Assembly: GCA_009711705.1 (NCBI GenBank)
Contig: VENG01000008.1
Span: 99,535-163,534, forward strand
From: Bacillota bacterium
Lineage (GTDB): Bacteria; Bacillota; Desulfotomaculia; Desulfotomaculales; VENG01
Length of the DNA: 64,000 nucleotides
Direction: 5' to 3'
Positions within the stretch are counted from its first letter, which is position 1; each line of letters starts with the position of its first letter. The notes beneath the pieces are model-generated. The model did not search any database. It was given only the letters and a program-made list of their open reading frames with translations, and was not told where the DNA came from. A program made the position numbers and the translations under genes. Below are positions 25,954-49,671 of this stretch, piece after piece.

Positions 25954-26949
25954 ATGGATTTTGCCATTTCTGGAATTCATGCTAACCCCATTTGGATTAT
26001 TGTTTGGGGCATTTTAACCGGATATGTTTTTTCTACCGTTGGTGCTGCGGGTGCTGTTTTGACCCTTATTGGACAGGTTTCACTGTTTAAGATTGATAAA
26101 ATCATGCCCAAACACTTGATGGCACAGGGTATGGGTGAGGCGGCAGCTACTGCACAAGCCAAAAATACAATCAAGGTACACAACTTGATGGCTGTTATAT
26201 TGTCACCGATCATCGCGGTACCCAAGTACTTTAAGGAAAAGCGGGTGGCCATCCCACTGGCCTTATGTGTTGCAGCCGGTGTTGTATTCGGTGCCCTTAT
26301 TGGACCACAAATCCCCATGTCCTTAAAGGCGTACAAGTTTGGTTTTGGGGTTATTACTTTCATAATTGGTTTACGTCTTGCATATGAGACTACAGGTATC
26401 TACCGCTCGAAGAAACAGAAGCTAAATGAAGTTTCCAAGGCCTTTGAATCCAAGGTAAAAGAAATGAAACAAAGTGGTAACTGGGATGCCCTGGCTACGG
26501 AAGGTTTTAAGGTTAACAACTTCAGCATTAAAGGATTAAACTTTACTTTCTGGGGACAGGAATTTTCCATTAACCCCATCATAGCAGCAGTTGGCGGTTT
26601 CTTCATTGCTATTATTGCATCCATGTTTGGTCTGGGCGGCGGCTTCATGTTGGTTCCATACTTGTCTTCCATCTTCGTACTGCCCATGTTCATGGTTTCC
26701 GGTACTTCCATTCTCATCGTGCTTGTGAACTCAGTGGTTGCTATTGGGAGTTACGTGGCCAAGGGTGCTACTCCTGACTTCCTGTACATTGGATTTTTCC
26801 TGGTCGGTGTTGCCGGTGGATCGTATCTTGGACCGGTTTTCTCCAAGTTTTACAAGGAAAAGTACTTGCGGTGGCTTTTGGCATCAATACTTCTGTTCTA
26901 CGGTCTGAGGTTTATGGGTGTTTGGCAAGCCCTTGGATTAGGCATCTAA
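25954..26949 (+). CDS. TauE/SafE (DUF81) family anion exporter
   Basis: Two 4-TM halves with a long charged central loop; VGAAGAVLTL and GLGGGFMLVP motifs. Confidence 0.7.
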   Translation: MDFAISGIHANPIWIIVWGILTGYVFSTVGAAGAVLTLIGQVSLFKIDKIMPKHLMAQGMGEAAATAQAKNTIKVHNLMAVILSPIIAVPKYFKEKRVAIPLALCVAAGVVFGALIGPQIPMSLKAYKFGFGVITFIIGLRLAYETTGIYRSKKQKLNEVSKAFESKVKEMKQSGNWDALATEGFKVNNFSIKGLNFTFWGQEFSINPIIAAVGGFFIAIIASMFGLGGGFMLVPYLSSIFVLPMFMVSGTSILIVLVNSVVAIGSYVAKGATPDFLYIGFFLVGVAGGSYLGPVFSKFYKEKYLRWLLASILLFYGLRFMGVWQALGLGI

Positions 26950-27509: not shown

Positions 27510-28751
27510 TTAAATAAACGAAAACAAAACTACAGATATTGCAGCGCCGGCGAGAACCAGCCAGAGAGTATCAAGTTTTGTATAGCGTTGGGCGGCAACA
27601 GCCCCCAGGGCCATTAGCCATGTAGGTATATCCACCAGGATGTCGTTAGTTAATCTAATAACCACGGCCCACAAAGTTCCGATAAATGCAGCTACCACTC
27701 CGCGTACCACCAAGCGGATACTGGGTACCTGCCCGGCCCGGCGGTATAAATCGGCGGTAAGGTTGATAATGCAAAAAGTGGGAATGTAAATATTTATTGT
27801 GGCCACCAGTGCCCCTGTTAAACCTGCTGCTTTGTAACCGATAAAAGTGGCAATTTTGGTTAATGGGCCCGGGGTTACTAAACTCAAGGCCAGAGCTGTA
27901 GTGAATTGCTGCGTGGTGATCCATTGATAATGATTGACGGCTTCTTCCTGGATAAAGGGCAACATGGCGTATCCGCTGCCAAAAACCAGGCCGCCTAATT
28001 CCATGAACGTAGTGCCCAAGTTCGTAAAGACTTTTGTGGTGCTGATTAAGGCAATATCTGCAGTCACCAGGGCGGCAACCAGGCCCACAGTATAACCCAG
28101 CTTTTTCCTGTCAATTGGTTTAATTTGGGTTTTTTCAATGTTCTGCTCTTTGGTGAGCCCGGCCATTTTTTCTGCCCACCAGGGAGAGCGCCGGCCTAAT
28201 ATGACAAAGGTGATGCTGAACAAGGTAGCCAGCAGGAGAATCCAGTAGATACTTAAATTCAGCCAGTAAATTAATACAAAACCTCCAATGGCCAGAACCC
28301 AATTCTGCTTATTGGTCACCCCTGATTTCCACAGGTTAAGAACAGTGTTGATAACCAGCCCCACCACCAGTGCCCCCAACCCTTTAAACAAGTTGGATAC
28401 TATAGACAGGTCACGGTATTCAGTATAAAGATAAGTAAAAACAACCATAAATACAAATGCCGGTAGCAGATAAGCTATAGCGGCGCAGGCTGAACCCCAG
28501 AAGCCGCGCAGTCGTTGTCCCAGGTATATCATTAGACTTACCGCCGGTGCACCTGGTAGAATTTGTGAGAAACCAACCCCCTGCAGGTATTCTTCATCAG
28601 TAAACCACTTCTTCTCTTTTACCAGCCAATTTTTTGCTTCCCCCAGAGCGGCTAGACTAAAGGATACAGCCCCAATTCGTAAAAAGGTAAGGCAAATTTC
28701 CGGCAACGAGGCGGTTTTTATATTGTCCCGGGGAGTTGTTTTTTCTGACAT
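27510..28751 (-). CDS. chrA: chromate transporter ChrA (two fused CHR halves)
   Basis: FLRIGAVSFS...ILPGAPAVS in half 1 and GGLVFGSGYAMLPFI in half 2. ATG 28751 follows AAGGAGAGG. Confidence 0.8.
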   Translation of the reverse strand: MSEKTTPRDNIKTASLPEICLTFLRIGAVSFSLAALGEAKNWLVKEKKWFTDEEYLQGVGFSQILPGAPAVSLMIYLGQRLRGFWGSACAAIAYLLPAFVFMVVFTYLYTEYRDLSIVSNLFKGLGALVVGLVINTVLNLWKSGVTNKQNWVLAIGGFVLIYWLNLSIYWILLLATLFSITFVILGRRSPWWAEKMAGLTKEQNIEKTQIKPIDRKKLGYTVGLVAALVTADIALISTTKVFTNLGTTFMELGGLVFGSGYAMLPFIQEEAVNHYQWITTQQFTTALALSLVTPGPLTKIATFIGYKAAGLTGALVATINIYIPTFCIINLTADLYRRAGQVPSIRLVVRGVVAAFIGTLWAVVIRLTNDILVDIPTWLMALGAVAAQRYTKLDTLWLVLAGAAISVVLFSFI

Positions 28752-28863
28752 AGTGTCCTCTCCTTGGTAATGAGCTTTCTTGACAGGGTAGCAGGCCATA
28801 ATAATCTGCCAGGCGCGGGTAGATTAATTTGATCTGGGTCCAAAGGTATTTTTATCGAGGTAT

Positions 28864-28882
28864 TAAGTGCACAGTGCACTTA
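28864..28882. promoter_or_regulatory. 8-3-8 palindromic operator TAAGTGCA-CAG-TGCACTTA upstream of chrA
   Basis: Perfect inverted repeat ~113 nt 5' of the chrA start. Same arms occur at 38996..39014. Confidence 0.6.
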
Positions 28883-35290: not shown

Positions 35291-36448
35291 TTACACAGCT
35301 ATTATTTTGCGCTTAAGCAGTTCTTGCAGCGCGATGCCGGCTAAGAAACCTGCTCCCATATTCCACATCCCAAATCCAGCCGTAACGAGAAGGATATAAA
35401 AGTCTTCTTTCTCTCTACCCACATCTCTGGCACTTACCGCTAGCTCAAGACCGGCAAATAAAAGAATTACACCCAGTATGCACTCGGGAAAGATTTTAAA
35501 GATAAGGGCTACTGAGTTGCTAAAGAAAAGAGCCAATACAAGTAGTATGCAACCAAGTATTACAAGGGATCCGCCGGTTCTAGCCCCGAACCTGACGTGA
35601 CCGGCCATACCGCCCGCCCCGTGACACATGGGGGTGCCGCCGAAAATAGGTGATACCAGGTTCATTATGCCCTGCGAAACGGCAATTTTCTTTTCGGTTA
35701 CCGGCCTGTCCGGAAAGAGCCTATTATTTTCAGCAGTGATAGCAATGACGGCGTTCCCCAGTGTGAGTGGTATTTGAGGTATACCGAGTATTAGTGTCCC
35801 TTTGACAAAGTCCTGCCATGTTACACTGGCCACGGCCAGTTCAGGCATTCTAAAACCTATTTTAATTTGTGCCAGCTGACCAAATAGAGTAGGATCACGG
35901 AAAATGGCTACTGCTACGCCCACAACGAGAAGAACAAACATAGCCGGAACCTTTTTACCCTTGAGCAAGAAAAATGTAAGCAGCAAGGCAAATATGGCAA
36001 TTGCCAAATCACTCTGCATCTTTTGTATACCATCTTTAACGAACAAAAGCCCCAGGCCAAGTACAATACCTCTTATCACCGGCTTGGTTGCTATTTTGGA
36101 AATGTGATTTAGCATTCCCGTTAACCCCATAATAAGCCAGAAAAAACCGGTGAAAATTCCTGCCCCTAACACCATACTTGGTGTCAATGCCCCGGCACTG
36201 GTAATGGCTGCACCGCCTATAGCCTTCATGGGCTGGATGGGCAGTGGAGTCTTATAATACGAGCCCCCGATAATCATTAAGATACCAAACATAAACAATA
36301 CCCCGAGCGGGTCCATCTTCATTACCGTTATGTAGCCAACTATAAAAGGTATAAGGGTGCCCAGGTCACCAAAGGCACCGGCCCACTCCATGCGGTCAAA
36401 TTTGTTTTTAAGCTTTGTTGGTGCGGTTGGTTCCGTTTGAGTTTTCAT
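35291..36448 (-). CDS. MOT1/SulP-related putative molybdate/sulfate-type oxyanion permease
   Basis: WAGAFGDLGTLIPFIVGY and PIQPMKAIGGAAI resemble plant/algal MOT1 motifs (GDLGTxIP, PxQPMK). Confidence 0.6.
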   Translation of the reverse strand: MKTQTEPTAPTKLKNKFDRMEWAGAFGDLGTLIPFIVGYITVMKMDPLGVLFMFGILMIIGGSYYKTPLPIQPMKAIGGAAITSAGALTPSMVLGAGIFTGFFWLIMGLTGMLNHISKIATKPVIRGIVLGLGLLFVKDGIQKMQSDLAIAIFALLLTFFLLKGKKVPAMFVLLVVGVAVAIFRDPTLFGQLAQIKIGFRMPELAVASVTWQDFVKGTLILGIPQIPLTLGNAVIAITAENNRLFPDRPVTEKKIAVSQGIMNLVSPIFGGTPMCHGAGGMAGHVRFGARTGGSLVILGCILLVLALFFSNSVALIFKIFPECILGVILLFAGLELAVSARDVGREKEDFYILLVTAGFGMWNMGAGFLAGIALQELLKRKIIAV

Positions 36449-36452
36449 TCTG

Positions 36453-37238
36453 TCACCTCAACTTATATGTTGCTGAAATAAACTTTTTCTGTAACTCCAG
36501 ACCATAGGGGATTACTTTTTCCGGTTTTATTTTAAACCTTTTGCCATCGTCCAGATCGATAAAAAAGTTTATTAGCTTGTTAATTACAGTATCACTAGTG
36601 CCAAGGGTTAAAAGCTTTTTCGTAAATTTGTCATCAACAGGCTTAGTCTTAAAGATTCTGCAGCAATGGGGGTTCTCATAATATTGTCTTATCCTGTCCA
36701 GATTTTTCTCAAGGGCATCAATAAGTTCGTCCAAAACAGAACCGGTGGTTTCAACAACAACCGATGCCTGAACTAAAAAGCAATAAATAAACCTTTTTAT
36801 TTCAAATCCGCTTACTTTCAGAGGGCTGTTGTGCCGGTATAATTTTATTTCCGCTAAAGATTGTTTTTTGTCACCTGAAATAATTGTATGATCAGTTAGC
36901 CTGATACCAAGTAATGCCAGTTGCCACTTTAAAAATTCGGTGGAAACAACATCATTATCTGACGGGATAATTTCTCCGTGCCATGGAACTTGGGGGTGGT
37001 TATGCACGACTATGGCCTCTTGAAAGCATATTTTTGTTTGGCTTAGCCACTGAATTAAAACATTTACAGGTGGCATAATAGCCCATGTTTCCTGGCAGTT
37101 ATCACCACATAAAACTTTTAATTTGTTACTTCCACTGCCGAATACCAGTACTGCCTGTTCATATTTTTTTGTGGAAATGGCTTTTATTTCTTCGATACTA
37201 AGAATATCCACTGCTATGTAGGAAGTAGGTAGGGACAT
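36453..37238 (-). CDS. RadC-like JAB/MPN domain protein with ~125-aa unknown C-terminal region
   Basis: VVHNHPQVPWHGEIIPSDNDVVST...GIRLTDHTIIS fits HxH...SxxD with a 4-residue insertion relative to canonical RadC. ATG 37238 follows AGGAGGGG. Confidence 0.6.
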   Translation of the reverse strand: MSLPTSYIAVDILSIEEIKAISTKKYEQAVLVFGSGSNKLKVLCGDNCQETWAIMPPVNVLIQWLSQTKICFQEAIVVHNHPQVPWHGEIIPSDNDVVSTEFLKWQLALLGIRLTDHTIISGDKKQSLAEIKLYRHNSPLKVSGFEIKRFIYCFLVQASVVVETTGSVLDELIDALEKNLDRIRQYYENPHCCRIFKTKPVDDKFTKKLLTLGTSDTVINKLINFFIDLDDGKRFKIKPEKVIPYGLELQKKFISATYKLR

Positions 37239-37254
37239 TAAAGAACCCCTCCTG

Positions 37255-37686
37255 TCAATTTGACATATGCAGCTCATCTTCCAGGGCTTGAATAAAACTT
37301 TTTAATGAATAAGATCTAATGTTAAATAATATTAAGCCCAGGGCTACCATAATACACACAAAGTAGAACTGTGGAATCTGAATTCCCAGTACGGTGGGGA
37401 TCCCGTCAATAGTACGGAGGGCTTCATTTTTTTCTTTTGTCCAGGCTATCACTTTAGGTTCCGCATCCACGTCATTTGTCCGCGCCGGAATCATTTCAAC
37501 TGCTAAGTCGCCAAGTGCGGGATTGTAAAGAACGTCTAAAAAAATAACATTAAAAATAACCTGGTAGGCTAATATCCCACTGATTATAAAGACCAGTAAG
37601 AGGTGCCAGGAGACCTTCTTTTCGTAGTCATTGATTTTTCTTGTTAATTCTTTCTCGTTTAGCTTTGAGTTAGCCATTTTAACCAC
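37255..37686 (-). CDS. 2-TM hypothetical membrane protein
   Basis: 143 aa; TM helices WHLLLVFIISGILAYQVIFNVIF and FYFVCIMVALGLILFNI; tightly packed in the operon. Confidence 0.5.
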   Translation of the reverse strand: MVKMANSKLNEKELTRKINDYEKKVSWHLLLVFIISGILAYQVIFNVIFLDVLYNPALGDLAVEMIPARTNDVDAEPKVIAWTKEKNEALRTIDGIPTVLGIQIPQFYFVCIMVALGLILFNIRSYSLKSFIQALEDELHMSN

Positions 37687-37690
37687 GCCC

Positions 37691-38512
37691 CTAGCAAGGA
37701 ATTAAACCATTCTGCTCCAGTATTTCCTCTCCACGGGAACCGGTCAATATATCAATAAACTCCTGGGCTAGTTCCTTTTGATTCGATTCTTTTGGAATGG
37801 CGATGGCAAACTCAATGGGAGTACCGGTGATTTCGGTATCCAGGCCGGGATAACTTCCGTCAACTACAACTTTGGCCCGGGCATAATAATCAGCCAGGCG
37901 CGGGTCGCTTAAATTAATCTCAGGGGGGAATACTATGTGCTTTAGGTTTAATTGTTTGGCCACTGAAAGATATTCAAAGCCGTAATCAACCTGGCCCTGT
38001 AGAAGGGCACAAGCCAAATCAAAGGATTTGGGGTAGACATTACTCCAATTATCTTCCAATGCTTTAAACAGGCCCGGCCGGTTATAAAATTTCTCTGCCA
38101 GCTGCCACAACATCAATGTTCTGTACCCGCAGGGATCACGGTGATGGTCTGAACGACCGTATTTAATCTGGCTATTATTTAATAAAACATCCATCCAGTT
38201 GTCCTCGTTAATAATTTCACTATGCGTGGAAAACTCATCAAAGGCCAAAACCATTTGGTCGGTGGCAAAAGCAAAGGAGGTATCTACAAAGCGGGGAATT
38301 AGAATATCTTCAAATACCTTATAATCCGCCAGCGCAATTAAATCCACTATCTTTCCCCCCGCCACCGCCCGGGCACAGGCCCTTGACCCTGCATAATCCA
38401 ATTCTACTTTTAAATCAGGGTATCTTTCCCATAATATGTGAATGCACTCTTTCATGGGTTTACGCAGCGCCCCGGCATGAAGTACTTTAAAACAATTAGG
38501 ATTATTTTTCAT
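37691..38512 (-). CDS. WtpA/ModA-like tungstate/molybdate-binding protein lacking a signal peptide
   Basis: FKVLHAGALRKPM, HRDPCGYRTLMLWQLAE and VDYGFEYLSVAKQ match remembered WtpA class motifs (HAGSL, DPCGYR). Only 8 residues precede the first beta-strand. The start overlaps the padR stop. Confidence 0.6.
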   Translation of the reverse strand: MKNNPNCFKVLHAGALRKPMKECIHILWERYPDLKVELDYAGSRACARAVAGGKIVDLIALADYKVFEDILIPRFVDTSFAFATDQMVLAFDEFSTHSEIINEDNWMDVLLNNSQIKYGRSDHHRDPCGYRTLMLWQLAEKFYNRPGLFKALEDNWSNVYPKSFDLACALLQGQVDYGFEYLSVAKQLNLKHIVFPPEINLSDPRLADYYARAKVVVDGSYPGLDTEITGTPIEFAIAIPKESNQKELAQEFIDILTGSRGEEILEQNGLIPC

Positions 38513-38876
38513 CAGCGCTTCCCCCTTGCTCTTTTTGTTCTCGGTATAGACTAAGAAATTGTTCGACTTGAAGTTTTTGCTTCTCTACCTTTGCAGCAGC
38601 TTCGTCCAAAACGTTGATACCTTTTTCAGTTATTTCGTATAACCTGCGGGCAGGGCCCGATTCCGAGGTCTGCCAGCTGGATGTTAAAAGCCCGTTCTTC
38701 TCCATCCGTCTCAAGTTCCTGTATATGGTGCCCGGTTCTACTTCTTCCGTAGATTGCAATTTATTATAGTTTTGAATTAATTCATAGCCGTGCGAGGGCT
38801 TCATATAAACAAATAAAAGTAAGCCCGGCTGAATCAATTTATCCAGGGAAATATCCTCTCCGTTTTTTACCGCCAT
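38502..38876 (-). CDS. PadR family transcriptional regulator
   Basis: KPSHGYELIQ...GTIYRNLRRMEKNGLLTSSW...RRLYEITEKG. ATG 38876 follows ACGGAGG. Confidence 0.85.
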   Translation of the reverse strand: MAVKNGEDISLDKLIQPGLLLFVYMKPSHGYELIQNYNKLQSTEEVEPGTIYRNLRRMEKNGLLTSSWQTSESGPARRLYEITEKGINVLDEAAAKVEKQKLQVEQFLSLYREQKEQGGSADEK

Positions 38877-38995
38877 TATAAACCTCCGTATCAAGCGATT
38901 TCACAGAAATAATCAAGAGCACAGCCTTGTTCTAAAAATCTGTATCTTCATGGCATTACCTCCATTTAAATTGGCAAGCAAGTGCATTATAATTT

Positions 38996-39014
38996 TAAGT
39001 GCACCATGCACTTA
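38996..39014. promoter_or_regulatory. 8-3-8 palindromic operator TAAGTGCA-CCA-TGCACTTA between divergent padR genes
   Basis: Same arms as 28864..28882; an extra half-site AAGTGCA at 38979..38985. Confidence 0.6.
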
Positions 39015-39157: not shown

Positions 39158-39544
39158 ATGTGCCAAGACCAAGGTTCTCATCATGAAAGTAGTTGCAGCT
39201 GTTCTGGTATGCCAATGAGACGCTTTCTGCAGCCCTGTCTTTTACTGCTGCTTCACCGCCGGTCAACTCACGGGTACGATTTGATTCAAAATCTTGGAGA
39301 GTTCGGTTTTTCTTCCGGTGAAACAGACCCGGGCACTGTATACAGGCACCTGCGTAAGATGGAAGAGGAAAAATTAGTAACTTCCGCCTGGGATACAGAT
39401 CAAGGTGGGCCGGCTAAAAGGCTGTACCAAATAACCGGTGAGGGTGAGGAAATTTTACACGCCTGGGCCGTTACCCTGAATGGGAATAAACAGAGGATAG
39501 AAGACTTTTTGGTTAAATATAAAACCCAATTTCCGGGACAGTAG
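39158..39544 (+). CDS. PadR family regulator with Cys/His-rich N-terminal extension
   Basis: N-terminus MCQDQGSHHESSCSCSG, then the PadR core STHGYDLIQ...GTVYRHLRKMEEEKLVTSAW...KRLYQITGEG. Confidence 0.8.
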   Translation: MCQDQGSHHESSCSCSGMPMRRFLQPCLLLLLHRRSTHGYDLIQNLGEFGFSSGETDPGTVYRHLRKMEEEKLVTSAWDTDQGGPAKRLYQITGEGEEILHAWAVTLNGNKQRIEDFLVKYKTQFPGQ

Positions 39545-39772: not shown

Positions 39773-40249
39773 ATGTTTAATATCATCCTTTTTGTATCGG
39801 CTGCCATTGGATTTATAATATCCAATCAGAAAGACAAAGTAAAAACTAAGCAGGCCCTCAAAAAAGCCGTAAATTCCTTTATCAATTTATTGCCCAGCTT
39901 ACTGGGGATCATTGGCCTCATCGGTTTAATGTTGGCGCTGGTGCCCCGGGAATTAATTGCGGGGTTTTTCGGCGATAACAGCCCGGCAGGTATTGCCGTC
40001 ATTTCGGCCATCGGTTCCATTACACTGCTGCCGGCATTTGTTGCTTTTCCCCTGGCCTCATCGTTCCTTGATGCCGGGGCCAGTATCGTTGCCGTGGCCT
40101 GTTTTATCACCACTTTGCTGATGGTGGGGGTCATAACCGCTCCCATGGAAATAGAGTATTTCGGGAAGAAATTTACCCTTTGGCGTAATTTATCTGCACT
40201 GGTACTGGCAGTTATCATCGGTCCCTTGATTGGGGTGATGGTGCGGTGA
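39773..40249 (+). CDS. permease, half-size (DUF318/ArsP-superfamily-like), part A
   Basis: 158 aa, 4-5 TM; overlaps the next gene by 4 nt. Confidence 0.55.
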   Translation: MFNIILFVSAAIGFIISNQKDKVKTKQALKKAVNSFINLLPSLLGIIGLIGLMLALVPRELIAGFFGDNSPAGIAVISAIGSITLLPAFVAFPLASSFLDAGASIVAVACFITTLLMVGVITAPMEIEYFGKKFTLWRNLSALVLAVIIGPLIGVMVR

Positions 40250-40782
40250 AGAGTAAAATTAAAAAGTATAATCTTTTTTTCCTGGTTGTTTTAGTTGATC
40301 TTATTTTGTGGTTCTACTGGCCGGATAAGGGAACAACGGCAGTTATAAGTACCGGTGATTATCTAGTTGAGATGCTGCTGTTCATTCCACCTATTTTTAT
40401 ATTAATCGGTCTATTAGATGTTTGGGTACCCAGAGAAATTGTGGAAAAGAACGTAGGTTCCGAGTCAGGGGTAAAGGGTGTTGTTATATCCATTTTGGTG
40501 GCCACTGCTGCAGCCGGTCCCCTTTACGCGGGCTTCCCGGTAGCCTACACTCTGATGGAAAAAGGCTGCCGCATGGCAAATGTGGTGATCTTTCTCGGTA
40601 CCTGGGCAACAATAAAAGTTCCCATGCTGATGATGGAGATAAAATTTTTGGGAATGGAATTTGCGGCAGCCAGGTTGCTATTAACTCTTCCGGCAATTAT
40701 CCTTTCCGGTTACCTGGTAGAAAGATTGTTAGCCGGTGCAAAGAAAGCCGGTAAACCTAAAGCTAACAAACTTACCGGTTAA
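40246..40782 (+). CDS. permease, half-size (DUF318/ArsP-superfamily-like), part B
   Basis: 178 aa; LDVWVPRE...AAAGPLYAGFP...TWATIKVPMLMME. Confidence 0.55.
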   Translation: MKSKIKKYNLFFLVVLVDLILWFYWPDKGTTAVISTGDYLVEMLLFIPPIFILIGLLDVWVPREIVEKNVGSESGVKGVVISILVATAAAGPLYAGFPVAYTLMEKGCRMANVVIFLGTWATIKVPMLMMEIKFLGMEFAAARLLLTLPAIILSGYLVERLLAGAKKAGKPKANKLTG

Positions 40783-41411: not shown

Positions 41412-42101
41412 ATGGCCAACCATACTATTTTGGTGGTGGAAGACGAAGAGCGAGTACAGCAGCTGGTAGAACTGTATTTAAAGAAAGAGGGTTTTACCGT
41501 AGATATGGCTTTTGACGGAGAGGAAGCTGTGAAAAAGGCCAGGGCCGGTCTGCCTGATCTAATTTTACTGGACATTATGCTGCCTGAGATGGATGGCTGG
41601 GAGGTTTGTAAAGAGCTGAGGAAGACCATGTCCACACCCATTATCATGCTTACCGCCAGGGGAGATGAATTCGACCGGGTAATGGGGCTGGAACTTGGTG
41701 CGGATGATTATATAGCCAAGCCTTTCAGCCCTCGGGAAATGGTGGCCCGGGTGAAGGCTGTGCTTCGACGCACAGCCGCCGGAGCACAGAATGGTTCGAA
41801 GGTGCTTGATTTTAACGAGTTGTGTATTAACTACACCAGCAGGACAGTAGAGATTAAGGGTAATATAATAGAAATGCCGCCCAAAGAATTTGAACTTTTA
41901 TGGTTTCTGGCCGGTCACTGCGGCCAGGTTTTTTCCAGGGAACAATTGCTGCACAGTATTTGGGGGTATAGCTATGTCGGTGACCCCCGCACAGTGGACA
42001 CGCATATTAAGCGGCTGCGGGAAAAGTTGGCCCAGGCCCGGGAAGTTTGCTCGATAAAAACCGTTTGGGGATACGGGTATAAATTCGAGGTTGTGGGTTA
42101 A
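41412..42101 (+). CDS. OmpR-family response regulator
   Basis: Receiver domain (DLILLDIMLPEMDG) plus winged-helix output (RTVDTHIKRLREKL). Confidence 0.9.
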   Translation: MANHTILVVEDEERVQQLVELYLKKEGFTVDMAFDGEEAVKKARAGLPDLILLDIMLPEMDGWEVCKELRKTMSTPIIMLTARGDEFDRVMGLELGADDYIAKPFSPREMVARVKAVLRRTAAGAQNGSKVLDFNELCINYTSRTVEIKGNIIEMPPKEFELLWFLAGHCGQVFSREQLLHSIWGYSYVGDPRTVDTHIKRLREKLAQAREVCSIKTVWGYGYKFEVVG

Positions 42102-43864
42102 TGTTTAAAAGCCTTTTTAGTAAATTAATGTCCTCATATCTATTGGTTGTATTAGCTACACTGTTGGTTTTAGGTATACTTATCTCCCACCTTTTTTCCA
42201 ATTACTACTATTCATCCAGTGAACAAGAGTTAAAAGATAAGGGACTGGAAATGGCCGGTCTGATGAGTGACTATATGGAGCAGGGACGGCCCGTGGAAGA
42301 AGTCTTGGCTGTCACGGGCAGCATGGTGGATGCTCGAGTGTTCTGGGTGCAGCGGCAGGCGCTTGATTTTGCGCAGCGCGGGCGCATACACGGGCTGAGG
42401 TTGGATCGTGTTGAAGTAGAGCAAATTTTAAAGGGCGAAATAATAACCAAACAGGCATTTATGTACCGTTTTAACCAGGCTATGATCTCGGTAGCCGTTC
42501 CCGTGAGAGTTAATAGTAGTATCGCCGGTGCGTTATTCCTTTTTACGCCTGTTGCCGATATTACAGATACCATATCGGCAGTGCGCAAGCTAATATTTTG
42601 GGCCGCCCTCCCCACCATACTTTTTGCTGTTATTATCGCCTATTTCTTATCCCGCTCCGTTTCCCGCCCGCTACAAGATATGAGTTTGGCCAGCCGGGCC
42701 ATGGCGGAAGGTGACTTTCAGCAGCGGATTAATACGTCCTCCCGGGACGAAGTGGGGCAACTGGCCCAGAGTTTCAACCACCTGGCAGGGGCTTTGAATA
42801 ATACCATTAATGATCTGTCTATGGAAAAGGAAAAAATGGAAAGTGTGTTGGGCAACATGGCCGAAGGGGTTATAGCCATTGACCCCGGTTGCAGGGTTAT
42901 TGCCGCAAACCGGCAGGCTATTGAAACTTTCGGCTTTGATCAAAGTACTTTAAGCCAGGTGCTGGCGGAAACTTCTCTACCGGATGAAGTACAGGTACTA
43001 TTTAATCAAGTATTAGAATCAGGGGAAACAAAAAGTATTGAAATTACTTTAAACAACGGTAAAATATTTCTTCTCGCCCATGTATCACCGCTGCGAGAAA
43101 CCGGTGCCGGCGTATTTGGCGCGGTGGGTGTTTTCCATGACATTACCGATATCCGGCGCCTGGAACAAATGCGCCGGGATCTGGTGGCCAATGTTTCCCA
43201 CGAACTGCGAACGCCCTTAACTTCTGTGCAGGGGTTTGTTGAGGCCATGCTGGACGGTACTATAGAGGGCGAAGAGGATAAATCAATTTATCTTAACATT
43301 ATCCACCAGGAAACTATACGGCTTAACCGGCTTATTCATGATCTGTTGGACCTGGCCTCCATGGAATCCGGGAAGACATCCTGGGAAATAAACGCGGTAG
43401 ATGTAAGTGAATTAATAAGCCGGGTAGTGGCCAGGCTACAGCCGCAGCTTAAGCGCCGGCTGCTTACTGTTAAAAGAGAAATCCCTGCCGCTTTACCCTT
43501 GTTGTTGGCCAACGAAGACCGGGCGGAACAAGTCCTAACCAATCTAATTGGTAACGCCGTTCAGTTTTCTCCTGAAGGCGAAAGTATTACGATTGAGGTG
43601 CAGGCCGTACAGGGTGAAATAACAATAAGTGTAGTTGATCGTGGCCCCGGCATTGCGGTAGAAGAGTTGCCATATATCTGGGAGCGATTCCACCGGGTGG
43701 ATAAATCACGTTCCCGGGCCCTGGGCGGTACCGGCCTGGGCCTTGCCATAACCAAACAAATTATAGAGGCCCACGGCGGAAGAGTGGGAGTCCGGAGCGA
43801 ATCAGGCCGGGGTTCCGTTTTTAGCTTTACCCTGCCGGCGGTGCCGGGGGAAGAACCAGAGTAA
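42101..43864 (+). CDS. sensor histidine kinase (TM-HAMP-PAS-HisKA-HATPase)
   Basis: H-box SHELRTPLTS, G-boxes DRGPGI and GGTGLGLAI. Its start overlaps the response-regulator stop. Confidence 0.9.
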   Translation: MFKSLFSKLMSSYLLVVLATLLVLGILISHLFSNYYYSSSEQELKDKGLEMAGLMSDYMEQGRPVEEVLAVTGSMVDARVFWVQRQALDFAQRGRIHGLRLDRVEVEQILKGEIITKQAFMYRFNQAMISVAVPVRVNSSIAGALFLFTPVADITDTISAVRKLIFWAALPTILFAVIIAYFLSRSVSRPLQDMSLASRAMAEGDFQQRINTSSRDEVGQLAQSFNHLAGALNNTINDLSMEKEKMESVLGNMAEGVIAIDPGCRVIAANRQAIETFGFDQSTLSQVLAETSLPDEVQVLFNQVLESGETKSIEITLNNGKIFLLAHVSPLRETGAGVFGAVGVFHDITDIRRLEQMRRDLVANVSHELRTPLTSVQGFVEAMLDGTIEGEEDKSIYLNIIHQETIRLNRLIHDLLDLASMESGKTSWEINAVDVSELISRVVARLQPQLKRRLLTVKREIPAALPLLLANEDRAEQVLTNLIGNAVQFSPEGESITIEVQAVQGEITISVVDRGPGIAVEELPYIWERFHRVDKSRSRALGGTGLGLAITKQIIEAHGGRVGVRSESGRGSVFSFTLPAVPGEEPE

Positions 43865-43869
43865 TTTTT

Positions 43870-44397
43870 TCAAACCAATACAACCACCATTTCCTTTAAA
43901 GACTCCAACAAATCCTCGTTCCCCGGTTCCCAAATGACAGGGCATTCCTCCAGCTTTTTCCCCCCATTGACCATTTGGGCGGCAAAAGCCAAACAGGTTT
44001 GCTCGCCGCACCGGCGGCAGCCGGATTTTTGGGGCAGCCAGCCGTAAAGCACAAGGGGAGTGGGCCTGGAGCGCCTTTCATAAACAGGCTCAATGGTTTC
44101 CCTGTCAACATATGTTTTATTTATTAAGTCTTTCACCCAGGCAGCGGTTTCATCTGCATCCTCTTCGCTCAGCGCCTTGGCCACTGTTACTTCCCAGGGG
44201 TAAAGGGTAATCAATCTTTCGTCCTTGGTCATAGAGAGTACCTTGCCTTCATGATTATATACTGCATTTTTTTGGACCGCATTAAGATACGGCATTAAGC
44301 TGGTAATGTCATCAGAAAAAATGGCTCTGAATCTTATTCGATTGGGCACCACTATACATGGTGCTACGCTTGTAATCTTAATATCTTTTAAAAACAT
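43870..44397 (-). CDS. Fe-S-binding protein (RnfB/CFeSP N-terminal-type cluster domain)
   Basis: CRRCGEQTCLAFAAQMVNGGKKLEECP. ATG 44397 follows TAAGGAGG. Confidence 0.55.
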   Translation of the reverse strand: MFLKDIKITSVAPCIVVPNRIRFRAIFSDDITSLMPYLNAVQKNAVYNHEGKVLSMTKDERLITLYPWEVTVAKALSEEDADETAAWVKDLINKTYVDRETIEPVYERRSRPTPLVLYGWLPQKSGCRRCGEQTCLAFAAQMVNGGKKLEECPVIWEPGNEDLLESLKEMVVVLV

Positions 44398-44772
44398 AAG
44401 TTTTACCTCCTTAAGAAACACCTGCGACTATTCAATCTGTTATACCGCACGGGCGTTATCAGATTAACCTTCACTTGCGCCTTTTTTTATCTTATTTTCT
44501 GCCAAAAGCAACAATCTTTCCGGTTCCATGGTTTTCTCGTCTTTAAATAACGGCTGCATGAAATAAATACAATTTTTAATAGCCTGTTATTTTCCGGCTC
44601 TGTTTTTCTACCCGTAACAAAACACCTGTTGTTAACACTTAGCCCGCACTGCCCACAGCCCTGAATAGTAACACCCCCCTATTTTTTATTTTGGACTTCC
44701 GTTAATAAATCAATAGTTATATAATTATAGTATAAAAGTAAATGCCTGCCAACTATTTATAGTAAACACCCA

Positions 44773-44801
44773 TTGACAATATTCAAACATAAGGATATTA
44801 T
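44773..44801 (+). promoter_or_regulatory. sigma-A-type promoter of the arsR-trx-permease operon
   Basis: TTGACA (44773..44778), 17-nt spacer, TATTAT (44796..44801). Confidence 0.6.
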
Positions 44802-44811
44802 TATATAAATC

Positions 44812-45231
44812 ATGACTAATAAGGAGATGAGAAAGATGAGTATAGATAATTACGTCAAGATTTTTAAAGCTTTGGGTGAGCCCTCGCGATTACGAATGTT
44901 AAAAATATTGTCGGTAAGACCCATGTACGTGTGTGAGCTGGAGAAAGTGCTGCAAATGAGCCAGCCGAGAATATCCCAGCACCTGCGGGTAATGAAGCAT
45001 GCCGGGCTGGTAACAGAGCGCAAGGAGGCCCAGCGTACCTTTTACGCCCTTAAAATTGATTATCTTGATGAACAGTTTAAAGAATTGCTGGAATTCTTCC
45101 ATGCAGATTTGGAAAGCCTGCCGCTTTTTATCGAGGAATACCAGCGGCATAAAGAGCTGGAGGAGGATTCCGGAGTGGCACAATGTAAGGAAGGGAAAAC
45201 AGAGGCGGTAAAATTGGAGCAGGAGGCATAA
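44812..45231 (+). CDS. ArsR/SmtB family metalloregulator
   Basis: LGEPSRLRMLKIL...VCELEKVLQMSQPRISQHLRVMKHAGLV. The likelier start is ATG 44836, 9 nt after AAGGAG. Confidence 0.85.
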   Translation: MTNKEMRKMSIDNYVKIFKALGEPSRLRMLKILSVRPMYVCELEKVLQMSQPRISQHLRVMKHAGLVTERKEAQRTFYALKIDYLDEQFKELLEFFHADLESLPLFIEEYQRHKELEEDSGVAQCKEGKTEAVKLEQEA

Positions 45232-45409
45232 ATTAAATAGAACTGTTATGATCATTGCCATTAAGCCGTTAATTAGGTGATCTTCATGGCCGGTTTTTAC
45301 AGGTTGAGCCCCCGTTTTCAAAAAGTGTGGCATTTTAAGGAAGCCTTTTCTTCCGGTTAAGGCAAGGCCGGAACATATTTAAATAAATAACAATAAGGAG
45401 ATGGTATTA

Positions 45410-45649
45410 ATGGAAATCAAAGTACTGGGAACTGGCTGCAAGAAGTGCAAAGAAACTGAAAAAGCCGTGCAAAAGGCAGTGGAAGAGCTCGGTATTCAGG
45501 CTGATGTGGAAAAGGTGGAAGAAATGGACAAAATAGCTGACTATAATGTTTTAATGACCCCGGGCCTAGTGATTAACGGAAAGGTAAAGGTAACCGGGCG
45601 GGTACCCAAGCACAAGGACATTCTTAAGTACATTAAGGATGAAATGTAA
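45410..45649 (+). CDS. thioredoxin-fold redox-active disulfide protein 2 type
   Basis: MEIKVLGTGCKKCKE...MTPGLVINGKV; CxxC motif. ATG 45410 is better spaced from AAGGAG than track start 45401. Confidence 0.75.
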   Translation: MEIKVLGTGCKKCKETEKAVQKAVEELGIQADVEKVEEMDKIADYNVLMTPGLVINGKVKVTGRVPKHKDILKYIKDEM

Positions 45650-45750
45650 AATAAAAAAACCATGAATTTGATTTGCCCGAGAAGACTCTTCACCGTGATA
45701 GCAAGTAGTTAACTATATAGAGATAAACATGGCAGTTGGGAGATGACAAT

Positions 45751-46806
45751 ATGACCTTGATGGGTGTGCTGCAGAGCGGGTTTAATGAGCTTCTGGAGTA
45801 CCTGTCGGCTCACGTACTTACTTGCCTGGTGCCGGCGTTCTTTATTGCCGGCGGCATAGCCGCGGTGGTGTCCACCGGGGCGGTGCTTAAATATTTCGGG
45901 CCCCGGGCGCCAAAGCACATGTCCTATGGTGTAGCTTCGGTGTCGGGAGCAATACTTGCTGTTTGTTCCTGCACCGTGCTACCCCTTTTTGCCGGTATTC
46001 ATAAAAAGGGGGCCGGTCTGGGCCCGGCGGTGACATTTCTTTTTTCCGGCCCGGCCGTTAATATATTGGCCATAGTGCTTACCGCCAGAAAAATGGGCTG
46101 GGAACTGGGCGTGGCCCGGGCCATAGGCGCAGTAGTGTTTTCCATAGTAATCGGACTTTTAATGGCCTTGATTTTTAAAAAGGAAGAAGATAAAAAACAG
46201 GCCGAAAAAGGTGACGACGGCGGTATGTTTGACGGGGAAGACGGTAAACCCGTGGGTCACCTGCTTGCCTTCTTTGGTGCTATGGTGGCCATCCTCATTT
46301 TCGGCACCGCATCCATACCGCTTTGGAGTAAAATAGCCATTGTAATGGCGCTCTTAAGTTTCTTGGCCACAGTGCTCATCGCCTGGTATGACCGGGATGA
46401 AGTGCAGGATTGGCTGGTGGAAACATGGAAGTTTGTCAAATTGATTTTCCCCATCCTGCTGGTGGGTGTGTTTGTGGCCGGAGTATTAAAGGCCGTAATT
46501 CCCGAGCAGTGGATATCGGCTTCGGTAGGCGGTAACAGCCTCTCATCCAACGTAGTGGCATCCGTGATTGGTGCACTGATGTATTTCTCCACCTTGACCG
46601 AAGTGCCCATCGTAAAGGCTTTGTTGGACATGGGCATGGGGCAGGGCCCGGCCTTGGCGCTACTTCTGGCAGGCCCGTCCTTAAGTTTGCCCAACATGCT
46701 GGTGGTCAGAAATGTTATGGGTACTAAGAGAACTATCGTATATGTTGTTATTGTAGTTGTAATGGCAACGTTTACGGGCCTGATCTTCGGAAACATTGTG
46801 ACTTAA
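45751..46806 (+). CDS. DUF318/ArsP-type permease
   Basis: AVCSCTVLPLFAGIHKKGAGLGPAVTFLFSGPAVN motif region. ATG 45751 follows GGGAG. Confidence 0.7.
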   Translation: MTLMGVLQSGFNELLEYLSAHVLTCLVPAFFIAGGIAAVVSTGAVLKYFGPRAPKHMSYGVASVSGAILAVCSCTVLPLFAGIHKKGAGLGPAVTFLFSGPAVNILAIVLTARKMGWELGVARAIGAVVFSIVIGLLMALIFKKEEDKKQAEKGDDGGMFDGEDGKPVGHLLAFFGAMVAILIFGTASIPLWSKIAIVMALLSFLATVLIAWYDRDEVQDWLVETWKFVKLIFPILLVGVFVAGVLKAVIPEQWISASVGGNSLSSNVVASVIGALMYFSTLTEVPIVKALLDMGMGQGPALALLLAGPSLSLPNMLVVRNVMGTKRTIVYVVIVVVMATFTGLIFGNIVT

Positions 46807-46813
46807 TTTTAAC

Positions 46814-46867
46814 GCAAGTGGGGACGGTTCTTGCTTGCCCGGGCAAGCAAGAACCGTCCCCACTTGC
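46814..46867. terminator. perfect 54-bp palindrome between convergent permease genes
   Basis: GCAAGTGGGGACGGTTCTTGCTTGCCC|GGGCAAGCAAGAACCGTCCCCACTTGC; 27-nt arms, no mismatch. Confidence 0.8.
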
Positions 46868-46877
46868 ACATTTGTAT

Positions 46878-47843
46878 CTAGACAACCCACGGCCCTATGG
46901 CATTAAAAACATAGCCGGTAAATATAATGGCCAGGGCTACCACGGCAATAAAGACACCGATCAGTTGGGGCTTAAGGACCTTGCGTAGGATAATCATCTC
47001 GGGAAAGGACAGCGCCGTTATGGACATCATAAAGGCCAGTGCCGTTCCTATGGCGATTCCCTTGCCTAAAAGAGCCTGGATGACCGGTATTGTTCCCACC
47101 GCGTTGGAATAAAGGGGAACACCCAGCAGCACCGCAATGGGTATGGCAAATAGGTTACCCGGCCCAGCCCACCTGGTGATAAGGTCTTCCGGCGCGTAGC
47201 CGTGAATGCCTGCTCCAACGGCTATACCGATAACAACGTAAATCCAGATCCGACCCACAATGTCTTTGACATTGTCCCAGGCGTACTCCACCCGGTCTCG
47301 CCAGGTCATTTCAGGCAGTTCAGCACCCGCTACGCCTACTCTCTTTTTAAATACATAATCCTCAACATAGCTTTCCATCTTTAGCTTACCAATTATTATA
47401 CCGCCGATTACGGCGATTATTACCCCGCTGACCGCGTAAATGGCGGCCAGTTTCCAGCCCAGTGCGGCTATAAGCAACACCACCGAAACTTCGTTAACGA
47501 TAGGTGAGCTGATAAGAAATGAAAAGGTAATTCCCAATGGAATGCCCGACTCAACAAAGCCTATAAATATAGGCACGGAAGAGCAAGATCAGAAGGGGGT
47601 AACCGTGCCCAGCACGGCAGCGGCGGCGTGCCCGGTGTATAAACTGTAGCCGCTTAGTAATTGCCGGGTTCTCTCCGGTGGAAAAAAACTGCGTACTATG
47701 CTGATAATAAATATCATTACAGAAAGAAGGATAATTATTTTAATGGTATCGTAAACAAAAAAGTTTATAGATTCACCCAGGCGGGTGTGTGGAGCAAGCC
47801 CCAGCAAAGTATATACAACATAATCAGCAAAGTTTTGAATCAC
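46878..47843 (-). CDS. DUF318/ArsP-type permease interrupted by a single in-frame TGA (47591..47589)
   Basis: Track ORFs 47589..47843 and 46878..47576 share one frame. Joined: ...GTVTPF-TGA-SCSSVPIFIGFVESGIPLG. GTG 47843 lies 8 nt after AGGAGG. Confidence 0.65.
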
Positions 47844-47986
47844 TTGGACAACCTCCTTCTAAGTATATAATGGCCGTTACAAGTTAATTTAATCATTGAT
47901 TAACATAACAAAAGAACACAACTGAAGTGAGGAAATGCTGCACTGGTGTGGAATTACATGTGTAGTTTTGGTATTGAATTTACTTA

Positions 47987-48010
47987 ATATATAAATTAGA
48001 ATTTATATAT
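47987..48010. promoter_or_regulatory. 9-6-9 palindromic operator ATATATAAA-TTAGAA-TTTATATAT (site 1)
   Basis: Located in the divergent promoter region between the TGA-permease and the radical SAM gene. Arms identical to site 3. Confidence 0.55.
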
Positions 48011-48108
48011 CTTCACCTATTTATTTACGTTCCGGAATGAAACAACTTCTGGTTTATTTTAATACAAAGCGCGTATTTTTTTAGAACAGTTAATCGAGGA
48101 GGTTGTAT

Positions 48109-49254
48109 ATGACCGGCAATAAAAAGACCTTTACCGAAACCAGTTTTAAAACTCAAGGCCCGGAGGATGCTCTGATCATTAAGTGCGAGGACGGCTGGCA
48201 CGTAATTCCCAGGGTTCCCGATACCCAAAAATTATATATTGAAGCAACTACACACTGTAATTTTTCCTGCACCACCTGCATCCGCAATTCATGGCAGGAC
48301 GACTTGTCACATATGGAGTGGCCTGTTTTTGAGCGCATTTTAGACAGCATCCCACATTTGCCTCAACTGGAGCGCGTGCACTTTGGAGGTTTTGGCGAGC
48401 CTTTCAGCCACCCGCGTATTCTGGAAATGTTAGCGATGGTTAAAGAACGTAGAGTGAAAATAGAAGCAATTACCAACGGTTCTTTGCTCACGGAAAAAGT
48501 AATTAATAAACTGGTTGACATACAGATGGATAAAATATTTATATCCCTGGACGGCCCCGACGAGGAAGAATACTGCAACATAAGGCAGGGAGCTAATTTT
48601 TCCGGAGTTCTGGATAACATTAGAATATTAAACAAGATCAAAGAACGTAAAGGTGTCCGTTTACCTGAACTGGGAATAGAGTTTGTGGCCACCAAAGACA
48701 ATTACCATAAAATGCCGCAAATGGCGTCCCTGGCCTCGAAACTGGGGGCCCGTCAATTAATTATTACCAATGTACTCCCGTATAATGAAGAAATGAAAGA
48801 TCAAATTCTGTATGATATGGATGATACAGATATAACCTTTGGGCATAATTCACCCCTTTTGCTGATGCAGGCACATTTGCCATATATGAAGCTGCGTACC
48901 GAACGCTACTGCAAGTTTGTCGAGGACAAGGCCATGGCAGTTAACCACAAAGGGTTTATCTCACCCTGTTACGCTTTTATGCACAGGTACAGTTGCTTCA
49001 TTTACGACCGGGAGAAAGAAATATACCCATTTTATATGGGTGATGCAAGTGAAAAGCCTTTGAATGAAATATGGACCAGCCTTACTTATATTAATTTTAG
49101 GCGGGAAGTAAAGGATTTCCGTTTCCCTTCCTGTACGGACTGCAAATTCCTGGACGGGTGTTCTTATACAGAAACCAATGAAGGCGACTGCTGGGGTAAT
49201 ACACCTTCCTGTGCCGACTGCCTTTGGGCCAGGCAGATAATCACCTGTCCATAA
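48109..49254 (+). CDS. radical SAM / SPASM-domain enzyme
   Basis: CNFSCTTC (CxxxCxxC) and a C-terminal Cys-rich SPASM-like region (CTDCKFLDGC...CWGNTPSCADC). ATG 48109 lies 7 nt after GAGGAGG. Confidence 0.75.
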   Translation: MTGNKKTFTETSFKTQGPEDALIIKCEDGWHVIPRVPDTQKLYIEATTHCNFSCTTCIRNSWQDDLSHMEWPVFERILDSIPHLPQLERVHFGGFGEPFSHPRILEMLAMVKERRVKIEAITNGSLLTEKVINKLVDIQMDKIFISLDGPDEEEYCNIRQGANFSGVLDNIRILNKIKERKGVRLPELGIEFVATKDNYHKMPQMASLASKLGARQLIITNVLPYNEEMKDQILYDMDDTDITFGHNSPLLLMQAHLPYMKLRTERYCKFVEDKAMAVNHKGFISPCYAFMHRYSCFIYDREKEIYPFYMGDASEKPLNEIWTSLTYINFRREVKDFRFPSCTDCKFLDGCSYTETNEGDCWGNTPSCADCLWARQIITCP

Positions 49255-49291
49255 GAATATTGTAATTGACAAAGGGTTATTGTTAATATTA

Positions 49292-49315
49292 TTATATAAG
49301 CAACAATTTATTTAT
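49292..49315. promoter_or_regulatory. degenerate 9-6-9 operator TTATATAAG-CAACAA-TTTATTTAT (site 2)
   Basis: 15 of 18 arm positions match sites 1/3. Overlaps the putative -10 downstream of TTGACA 49266..49271. Confidence 0.4.
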
Positions 49316-49340
49316 GTATAATAGGGAGTGTTATTAAGAA

Positions 49341-49586
49341 ATGGCAAATTGTTGCGACCCAAAAGCACCAAGAGTTTTTCAAATCCAAGTGGGAGACGGG
49401 CCGGTCGGCATTACAGGACTTGACCGTGCAATATCGGAAGTAAAGGCCATGGAGCCATTATCTGAAGAAAAGGTCAAGGAAGAACTATTTAAGAAAATAA
49501 AGGCACATAACTATATTCCTGACTCAGCCAGGGAAAAGTATTGTGTGGCTTTGTTTAGAGAATATCAAAAAGCTAAAAAAAGTTAA
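49341..49586 (+). CDS. 81-aa hypothetical protein with N-terminal vicinal Cys pair
   Basis: MANCCDPKAPRVFQIQVGDGPVGITGLDRAI...; weakly spaced SD. Confidence 0.5.
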   Translation: MANCCDPKAPRVFQIQVGDGPVGITGLDRAISEVKAMEPLSEEKVKEELFKKIKAHNYIPDSAREKYCVALFREYQKAKKS

Positions 49587-49657: not shown

Positions 49658-49671
49658 TAGGAGGCTAAAAG

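Follow-up and report, generated by a model that had tools for sequence, protein, structure and literature searches.

Molybdenum and tungsten homeostasis in prokaryotes is described through the ATP-binding cassette (ABC) importers ModABC, WtpABC and TupABC, together with regulators of the ModE and TunR types. ModE senses its effector via Mop/TOBE domains, while TunR is reportedly a family of tungstate-responsive regulators in sulfate reducers (Desulfovibrio) and is said to be a single polypeptide, combining a helix-turn-helix (HTH) with a PF12727/COG1910-type domain similar to periplasmic binding proteins (PBP). TaoR of Desulfovibrio is tungstate-dependent in vivo (PMC12327845). A survey of 2018 gives only ModABC, WtpABC and TupABC for prokaryotes, and about 7% of the Mo-using bacteria were left in it without a known transporter (PMC6147048). 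The present work concerns five minus-strand genes at positions 35291-38876 of a 64-kb window, by which we mean the whole analysed stretch of 64,000 nucleotides from contig VENG01000008.1 of a Bacillota bacterium (assembly GCA_009711705.1). Two of these genes, encoding a PadR regulator and a WtpA-class solute-binding protein (SBP) devoid of a leader, probably form a two-protein switch for group-6 oxyanions that controls secondary carriers.

The operon begins with padR (38502-38876, minus strand), which starts with ATG and encodes a PadR-family winged-helix regulator of 124 aa (PF03551, E 5e-20, 71.8 bits against the Pfam gathering cutoff of 27). The SBP gene follows it (37691-38512, minus strand, 273 aa) and was assigned by family scans and an AlphaFold2 (AF2) model. 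The final gene (35291-36448, minus strand) encodes a MOT1-type, SulP-related secondary carrier of 385 aa, which matches PF16983 (MFS_MOT1) in two stretches with E 2e-52 and 176.4 bits against a cutoff of 30, and contains GDLGTLIP and PIQPMK in its translation. Genes of a small transmembrane (TM) protein and a JAB protein, considered below, lie between them. The padR and SBP genes overlap by 11 nt, the later junctions, read from the sequence, are gaps of 13, 16 and 4 nt, and a Shine-Dalgarno sequence is recognisable at each of the five starts, with GGAGG 7 nt before the ATG of padR. In these respects the preliminary description of the locus was accurate: it had reported five tightly packed open reading frames (ORFs) with overlaps or gaps of at most 16 nt, the same gene identities, confirmed here by Pfam and NCBIfam scans except for the TM protein, which belongs to no family, and a last product of the MOT1 type and not an ABC permease. 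All five genes are under purifying selection, with pN/pS of 0.08-0.54 in comparison with a 96-98% identical relative and the value of 0.08 for MOT1.

In Pfam the SBP matches SBP_bac_11 (E 3e-33), and its best NCBIfam matches are the WtpA models NF003196 (229.8 bits vs a cutoff of 355) and TIGR03730 (207.9 vs 242.75), the alignment to the WtpA profile beginning at profile position 30. The nearest upstream in-frame stop (TAG at 38587) is 24 codons away, no ATG, GTG or TTG occurs between it and the start, and this whole stretch lies inside padR. The maximal 19-residue hydropathy across the entire protein is 1.23, and the first core strand of the AF2 model begins at residue 6. A hidden upstream start or signal peptide was rejected, as neither a start codon nor a hydrophobic N-terminus is present, and the same holds across the family; the earlier statement that signal peptide, lipobox and upstream start are all missing was therefore correct. 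Because the export signal has been lost, the SBP should stay in the cytoplasm. The NCBI name for these proteins, 'extracellular solute-binding protein', is misleading for the leaderless SBP.

According to phmmer, the PDB sequences nearest to the SBP are A. fulgidus AF_0094 and other archaeal WtpA/ModA proteins (E 5e-50). The AF2 model, with a pLDDT (predicted local distance difference test) of 93.7, was matched by Foldseek to the W/Mo-bound closed WtpA structures 3CIJ, 3CFX and 2ONK with TM-scores of 0.91-0.92; for tungstate-bound 3CIJ the TM-score is 0.92 and the root-mean-square deviation is 1.6 A, whereas the open form gives a TM-score of only 0.74. Sulfate-binding proteins are matched much more weakly (E ~1e-11, TM-score 0.64-0.71). 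The SBP models confidently as the closed, ligand-bound form of WtpA, and its fold is the type II binding-protein fold of the WtpA/archaeal ModA subclass.

The motifs of the WtpA/ModA class that had been noticed at the outset were located in the SBP at residues 12 (HAGAL), 126 (DPCGYR) and 176 (DYGFEYLS). WtpA ligates W via Asp160 and Glu218 (P. furiosus numbering), Asp160 being the residue that sets W selectivity (PMC4139814, PMC10221389). In the SBP, Asp126 of DPCGYR aligns with the metal-ligating Asp of WtpA and is invariant across the family, and Asp165 (PKSFD, or PKSxD in the family) occupies the column of the WtpA Glu, with Asp found there in all but 1 of 76 loci. Profile and structure comparison of 37691-38512, which the preliminary description had proposed, agrees in giving a WtpA-class protein that keeps the first aspartate and has Asp in place of Glu. 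Family-wide fixed differences from exported WtpA consist in the replacement of HAGSL by HAGAL, Glu by Asp, HSD by RSD and PIxY by PIEF. The fold and the two carboxylates support a group-6 metal oxyanion as the ligand of this predicted cytoplasmic receptor.

The distribution of the family was studied by a scan of reference genomes, one genome per species, in which 80 loci were inspected, 76 from Bacillota and 4 from Chloroflexota; about 270 further tblastn-confirmed loci lie outside this set. The SBP is leaderless in 76/76 Bacillota loci, that is, it has the HAGAL motif, no lipobox and an N-terminal hydropathy of at most 1.24 even for the longest ORF. A protein search gave about 118 close SBP homologues, all of 268-287 aa and all starting 5-12 residues before the LHAGALR motif or first core strand, and the first canonical WtpA matches in this search bear lipoprotein signals. 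On clustering at 50%, the leaderless clade consists of two representatives with 283 and 268 bits vs at most 216 for exported WtpA. Bacillota hosts include Desulfallas, Desulfoscipio, Desulfotruncus, Desulfofundulus, Desulfovirgula, Desulfosporosinus, Desulforamulus, Desulforudis and related metagenome-assembled genomes (MAGs), and the leaderless family appears to be nearly confined to Gram-positive sulfate reducers.

The constant companion of the SBP gene is padR. It stands directly upstream on the same strand in 74/76 loci, mostly overlapping or separated by a gap of a few nt, and in the other two the genes are fused in frame and encode a polypeptide of 417 aa (the P0112 fusion). The two fusion genes come from two MAG species and are 4.3% apart in DNA; the frame is kept despite this divergence, which argues that the fusion is real. 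A third fusion, P0016 (397 aa), comes from a single short contig. In the controls such pairing was absent: in all 4 Chloroflexota loci padR is missing and the gene, which has an ABC neighbour, encodes canonical WtpA with HAGSL and a lipobox, and in a metagenome scan a signal peptide was found in 71/80 WtpA-like genes and a padR neighbour in 0/80. Invariant adjacency, translational coupling and the fusions support a partnership of PadR and the SBP. Since the SBP is leaderless and always paired with PadR, sometimes as a fusion, it is most likely an internal oxyanion sensor.

The metagenome scan yielded almost solely canonical exported WtpA and one leaderless locus (L171, 3983-4870), whose WtpA-like gene has no adjoining regulator in the one context seen. 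More distant WtpA-like clades of the HAGSL type are also apparently leaderless (P0265, P0266, P0283, P0294, P0304, P0322, P0329, P0334, P0347, P0356 and P0379). As these distant clades appear to be without a signal peptide, cytoplasmic WtpA-like proteins may be commoner than the PadR-paired family. Fusions to DNA-binding domains were looked for in distant WtpA relatives and rejected, the N-terminal extensions being LysM, Cu_amine_oxidN1 and tandem PBP, i.e. extracellular modules.

The carrier is a variable part of these operons. On the same strand beside the PadR-SBP pair, a TauE/TSUP permease is encoded in 51/76 loci, a CHR-family chromate transporter in 13/76 and MOT1 in 7/76 (~9%), and about 6/76 have no carrier there. 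One further PadR-SBP-MOT1 operon belongs to Desulforamulus ferrireducens, and the combination of the SBP with MOT1 is therefore not peculiar to the genome studied. Many other MOT1 genes stand alone. The SBPs with a MOT1 partner belong to three separate subclades, and there is no correspondence between pocket residues and type of carrier. The conserved unit is PadR plus the leaderless SBP, not the SBP plus MOT1, and the carrier is an interchangeable and sometimes absent addition to this invariant regulator-receptor pair. The emphasis of the preliminary description on a binding protein coupled to a MOT1 carrier has to be shifted accordingly, PadR being the invariant partner (76/76, including the two fusions). 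Two Desulfosporosinus species have PadR-SBP-MOT1-ChrA in tandem (L058, 6830-9333; L078, 6789-9420), which suggests that MOT1 and ChrA are co-expressed and are not alternatives.

Bacterial MOT1 homologues number more than 7,600 and are named by NCBI 'putative sulfate/molybdate transporter'; no characterised bacterial member was found in the searched literature. The MOT1 homologues of sulfate reducers have been proposed as molybdate carriers, and TauE/TSUP, SulP and CHR carriers have all been discussed as sulfur-oxyanion carriers in these bacteria (PMC5840216). The MOT1 protein of the window is a putative molybdate/tungstate carrier, judging from its sequence.

Upstream of padR, a perfect palindrome TAAGTGCA-N3-TGCACTTA of 19 bp (38996-39014, inverted repeat I3), with arms of 8+8 nt that are 100% complementary, is the predicted PadR operator, and a third half-site AAGTGCAT (38980-38987, inverted repeat I2) adjoins it. 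Over the 76 loci, a relaxed 12-base motif shows a 7-fold enrichment in the 1.5 kb that precede padR. The 16-base motif, with up to 3 mismatches allowed, has about 36 matches in the ~1 Mb of locus DNA that was scanned, the shuffled background being 0.36 matches per 64 kb; about 34 of these matches, in about 34 other species, are promoter-proximal. These sites stand before padR in PadR-first operons and before tauE in TauE-PadR-SBP operons; in three loci tauE follows the SBP gene and the site separates the two.

The sole other perfect copy of the palindrome in the window, TAAGTGCA-N3-TGCACTTA at 28864-28882, is situated in the promoter region of an unlinked gene about 10 kb away; with 16 specified bases, ~1.5e-5 copies would be expected per 64 kb. 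This gene, chrA (27510-28799, minus strand), encodes a CHR-family (chromate transporter) carrier of 429 aa (PF02417, E 9e-72, 241 bits against a cutoff of 28.6, two stretches). A strong terminator (28973-28944) precedes the palindrome, which occupies the stretch 65-83 nt before the chrA start. Locus L018 has a ChrA within its PadR-SBP-ChrA operon, and the ChrA of the window shares 70% identity with it. Because a second perfect copy fronts chrA, which is independent evidence from within the same genome, the palindrome seems to mark an oxyanion-carrier regulon, and chrA is a predicted member of the padR regulon.

Some other candidates were tried and rejected. The TauE gene beside chrA (25954-26949, plus strand) was not accepted as a regulon member, having 24-26% identity to operon-linked TauE and no operator. 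An ORF of 12 codons, MKIQIFRTRLCS (38913-38951, minus strand), with a strong GGAGG ribosome-binding site, is placed between the operator and padR and was considered as a leader peptide; it is probably not a gene, since its ATG is lost in a 96% identical relative. A riboswitch or other RNA element was also rejected, as an Rfam scan of the 64-kb window gave no family at or above its gathering score. A tungsten-type aldehyde ferredoxin oxidoreductase (AOR), in which the preliminary description saw a demand for W, is indeed encoded in the window (17156-19159; AFOR_N and AFOR_C domains). Its link to the operon is only circumstantial: no operator precedes the AOR gene, and two matches with 2 mismatches in the window are at the chance level and not promoter-located.

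On the basis of these data the following sequence of events may be proposed. The PadR repressor would bind the 19-bp palindrome at two promoters, that of its own operon and that of the unlinked chrA. The SBP, translationally coupled to padR, would remain in the cytoplasm and bind tungstate or molybdate, possibly chromate, in its WtpA-type pocket, where Asp126 and Asp165 could ligate the metal directly. On binding, the SBP would close, and the closed state would alter the hold of PadR on the operator via direct contact. The output would be expression of secondary oxyanion carriers, represented here by MOT1 of the operon and the distant CHR protein and in most relatives by TauE/TSUP. What we infer in this scheme is the identity of the ligand, the contact between PadR and the receptor, whether regulation is positive or negative, and which way the carriers transport.

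As to the sign and direction, we slightly prefer the view that efflux or detoxification of sulfate analogues is induced. As a rule, PadR regulators act through ligand-induced derepression of efflux or detoxification genes; the prototypes of ChrA and TauE are exporters; and sulfate reducers are poisoned by molybdate, tungstate and chromate as analogues of sulfate. It is the combination of the PadR logic, the exporter prototypes, the arsenic-type island near the operon and the restriction of the family to sulfate reducers that inclines us to efflux. Repression of uptake is a live alternative, because the prototypes of MOT1 are importers and the cell needs W for its AOR.

Several points weigh against the proposed switch. 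The SBP remains below the cutoffs of the WtpA equivalog models and its pocket differs from that of WtpA at fixed positions, so its ligand could be different from that of WtpA. A co-regulated cargo protein would also be expected to adjoin its regulator, and only the fusions would argue for physical coupling, of which P0016 could be a frameshift error. The intergenic region with the palindrome is shared with a divergent second padR (39158-39544) and also serves this gene; the palindrome was assigned to the SBP-linked PadR because the motif is present in loci without a second padR. About 40/76 loci, including the whole CHR clade of Desulfosporosinus, have no copy of the motif. Finally, the presence of MOT1 and ChrA in one regulon is hard to square with simple import-only or export-only function.

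Among other explanations of the same data, the cytoplasmic SBP could be an intracellular acceptor, sink or chaperone for Mo/W imported by MOT1, with PadR merely regulating the operon, which is in our opinion unlikely. In its favour, the pocket is of the WtpA type, the protein is cytoplasmic and its gene shares an operon with that of a putative Mo/W carrier, as in the MOT1-containing operons of 7/76 species and D. ferrireducens, and a tungsten-type AOR is encoded in the same window. Buffering by the SBP could, moreover, coexist with sensing. However, MOT1 is the partner in only ~9% of loci and many MOT1 genes stand alone, while the pocket residues remain unchanged beside three unrelated carrier folds or none; PadR is the sole invariant partner, and fusion of a storage protein or chaperone to a DNA-binding domain would make little sense. 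From the roles initially suggested for the SBP, namely sink, chaperone and sensor, the last is therefore favoured by the pairing with PadR, and the other two are disfavoured because the carrier is not conserved. The idea that the SBP is exported after all, via a non-canonical start or unrecognised signal, and serves SBP-dependent secondary uptake similar to that of TRAP or TTT systems has a general precedent in such carriers from other families. It may be regarded as effectively refuted by the stop 24 codons upstream with no start codon in the padR-internal stretch, by the beginning of ~118 homologues 5-12 residues before the first core strand, by the longest possible ORFs in 76 species, which contain neither a hydrophobic segment nor a lipobox, and by the natural fusions, in which the SBP domain is placed behind a DNA-binding domain.

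It is also conceivable that the PadR-receptor switch is real and its ligand is not a group-6 oxyanion but sulfate, sulfite, thiosulfate, selenate, arsenate or phosphate, so that sulfur-oxyanion traffic would be controlled; we give this rather little credence. Carboxylates should repel sulfate and phosphate, which are unable to expand their coordination, and this general chemistry would speak against such ligands, the more so as the two pocket carboxylates are invariant and in WtpA bond W/Mo directly. All of the closest solved structures are WtpA/ModA with bound W/Mo, sulfate-binding proteins match far less well, and MOT1 is the only partner family with a molybdate-specific annotation. On the other side are the near confinement of the family to Gram-positive sulfate reducers, the fixed pocket differences with WtpA models below cutoff, the location of the locus within an arsenic-type resistance neighbourhood, and the partner carriers, which have been discussed for sulfur oxyanions in sulfate reducers (PMC5840216). 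A group-6 ligand of the PadR-SBP pair remains our preferred assumption.

Two genes of the operon seem to have no relation to this switch. The small 2-TM protein of 140 aa (37255-37677, minus strand) was recognised by two hydrophobic segments and has no Pfam, NCBIfam, PHROG or PADLOC match; its homologues were found only in close relatives of the window, plus a disrupted copy in L014. The RadC-like JAB protein of 261 aa (36453-37238, minus strand) matches PF04002 (E 3e-10, 40.6 bits vs a cutoff of 22.1), only the C-terminal half of the profile being covered. Its N-terminal half has a fold match to RadC 2QLC, and its helical and confidently modelled C-terminal half has no match to any solved structure. 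The JAMM-type metal motif HNHP..PS..D is intact and invariant. With the NCBIfam models of full-length RadC the protein scores far under the cutoffs and is therefore no orthologue of RadC. The JAB family comprises only 15 clusters in 5.8 billion sequences, and its distant members occur outside PadR-SBP operons, in unrelated contexts.

The TM-JAB pair is present in 2/76 species loci, those of the nearest relative of the window and Desulfoscipio geothermicus, and in the latter it precedes TauE and the TM gene is disrupted. With the pair in these two loci and JAB alone elsewhere, the assumption that both proteins are integral parts of the system was rejected, and the preliminary view of a conserved five-gene system could not be maintained. 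A phage or defence cassette was rejected as well, there being no PADLOC match and only a generic RadC PHROG match. Purifying selection suggests that both genes are functional. By their distribution they are apparently lineage-specific passengers, for which no tie to the oxyanion system was seen.

Between the operator and padR, where the rejected 12-codon ORF is situated, comparison of upstream regions revealed a relic of a small operon gene (38891-38947, minus strand), consisting of the last ~18 codons, which end in LEQGCALDYFCEIA followed by a stop. Its intact homologues of 60-90 aa, ending in DYFC(E/N)(I/V)A and belonging to no Pfam family, occur in 17/80 species loci; intact small-gene loci are L011-L015, L018, L037-L039, L042, L047, L049, L023, L025, L026, L029, L001 and L005.

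On the other side of the intergenic region, the product of the second padR (39158-39544, plus strand) has a Cys-rich N-terminus, HHESSCSCSG. It is followed by an ArsP_1-type permease split in two overlapping genes (39773-40249 and 40246-40782, both plus strand). This divergent padR2-ArsP unit recurs next to the PadR-SBP operons of L014, L020 and L064; in L053 and L063 the ArsP halves are located 2.5 kb upstream. The region 41412-50736 is of the metalloid-resistance type and encodes a response regulator, a PAS histidine kinase, ArsR, full-length and truncated ArsP_1 permeases, a radical SAM/SPASM protein and an ACR3-like SBF carrier. In Desulfosporosinus meridiei (L005) the PadR-SBP pair has a similar ArsR-SBF-ArsP-thioredoxin cluster beside it.

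Summarizing the data, a broader proposal may be formulated: a free-standing ABC-type binding protein was recruited as a detachable cytoplasmic sensing subunit of PadR, forming a tungstate/molybdate(/chromate) switch widespread in Gram-positive sulfate reducers, with a regulon that assigns Mo/W(/Cr) transport to subfamilies of TauE/TSUP, CHR and MOT1. In this full form the proposal is tentative, being plausible but, in our estimation, a little short of probable. No paper in the searched literature ties PadR to tungstate or molybdate sensing or describes a PadR-SBP system. To the hosts, molybdate, tungstate and chromate serve as sources of cofactors and, at the same time, are classic inhibitors of sulfate reduction. 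If the proposal is true, it adds a new sensor architecture, PadR with a leaderless WtpA-like receptor, split or fused, as well as a way, independent of ABC transporters, to maintain group-6 oxyanion homeostasis or to resist sulfate analogues. It would also provide a concrete operator and regulon, substrate predictions for the poorly understood TSUP/TauE, CHR and bacterial MOT1 carriers, and, in the form of a soluble, naturally cytoplasmic W/Mo receptor with its repressor, a ready part for biosensors. The system is present in the cultured Desulfoscipio gibsoniae, Desulfofarcimen acetoxidans, Desulfosporosinus meridiei and Desulforamulus ruminis and is therefore directly testable.

Comparison with known systems should begin with WtpA of the WtpABC importers (P. 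furiosus, A. fulgidus AF_0094; PDB 3CIJ, 2ONK, 3CG1), to which the SBP is akin in fold and subclass (E 5e-50, TM-score 0.92), in the aspartate of DPxGYR and in the motifs AGS, [RH]SD and DYxFxY. Unlike WtpA, it carries neither signal peptide nor lipobox and invariably accompanies PadR, and no wtpB or wtpC ABC genes were found in the 64-kb window, searched with ABC seeds, or in the 76 operons. The equivalent of Glu218 is Asp, HAGSL is changed to HAGAL, about 18 residues are deleted after residue 158, and both NCBIfam WtpA cutoffs are missed. The carrier of the window resembles plant and algal MOT1 in its strong match to PF16983, and both regions which we take to be MOT1 signatures, ..PIQPMK.. 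and ..CHGAGG..FGARTG, are present in its translation.

The PadR of the operon shares with B. subtilis PadR and L. lactis LmrR the winged-helix domain, a place as first gene of the operon that suits autoregulation, and a predicted operator that is a palindrome. The operator resembles the ATGT-N8-ACAT type, and efflux and detoxification genes are the typical targets of PadR proteins. The known PadR proteins bind effectors themselves, whereas here sensing is apparently delegated to a separate or fused binding-protein module.

Like ModE, TunR and TaoR, which are cytoplasmic Mo/W-sensing transcription factors controlling Mo/W transport or enzymes, the PadR-SBP pair is proposed to perform an analogous function. 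It differs from them in using PadR for DNA binding and, as the proposed sensor, a separate protein of the WtpA class (PF13531); secondary carriers, instead of ABC importers, are its predicted targets. In Pfam the SBP was assigned to PF13531 and PF01547 alone, and PF12727 gave no match at E <=0.01. The pair may be considered a functional analogue of TunR-type regulators and not a member of them.

A more distant likeness is to the LysR and LacI families, in which the fold of periplasmic binding proteins has been recruited as a cytoplasmic effector domain; in both cases a binding-protein fold would act as the intracellular sensor of a DNA-binding protein. The sensor domains of LysR and LacI are ancient, always fused and belong to their own PBP subfamilies, whereas the SBP is a recent offshoot of ABC-transporter binding proteins, usually a separate polypeptide, and is paired with PadR.

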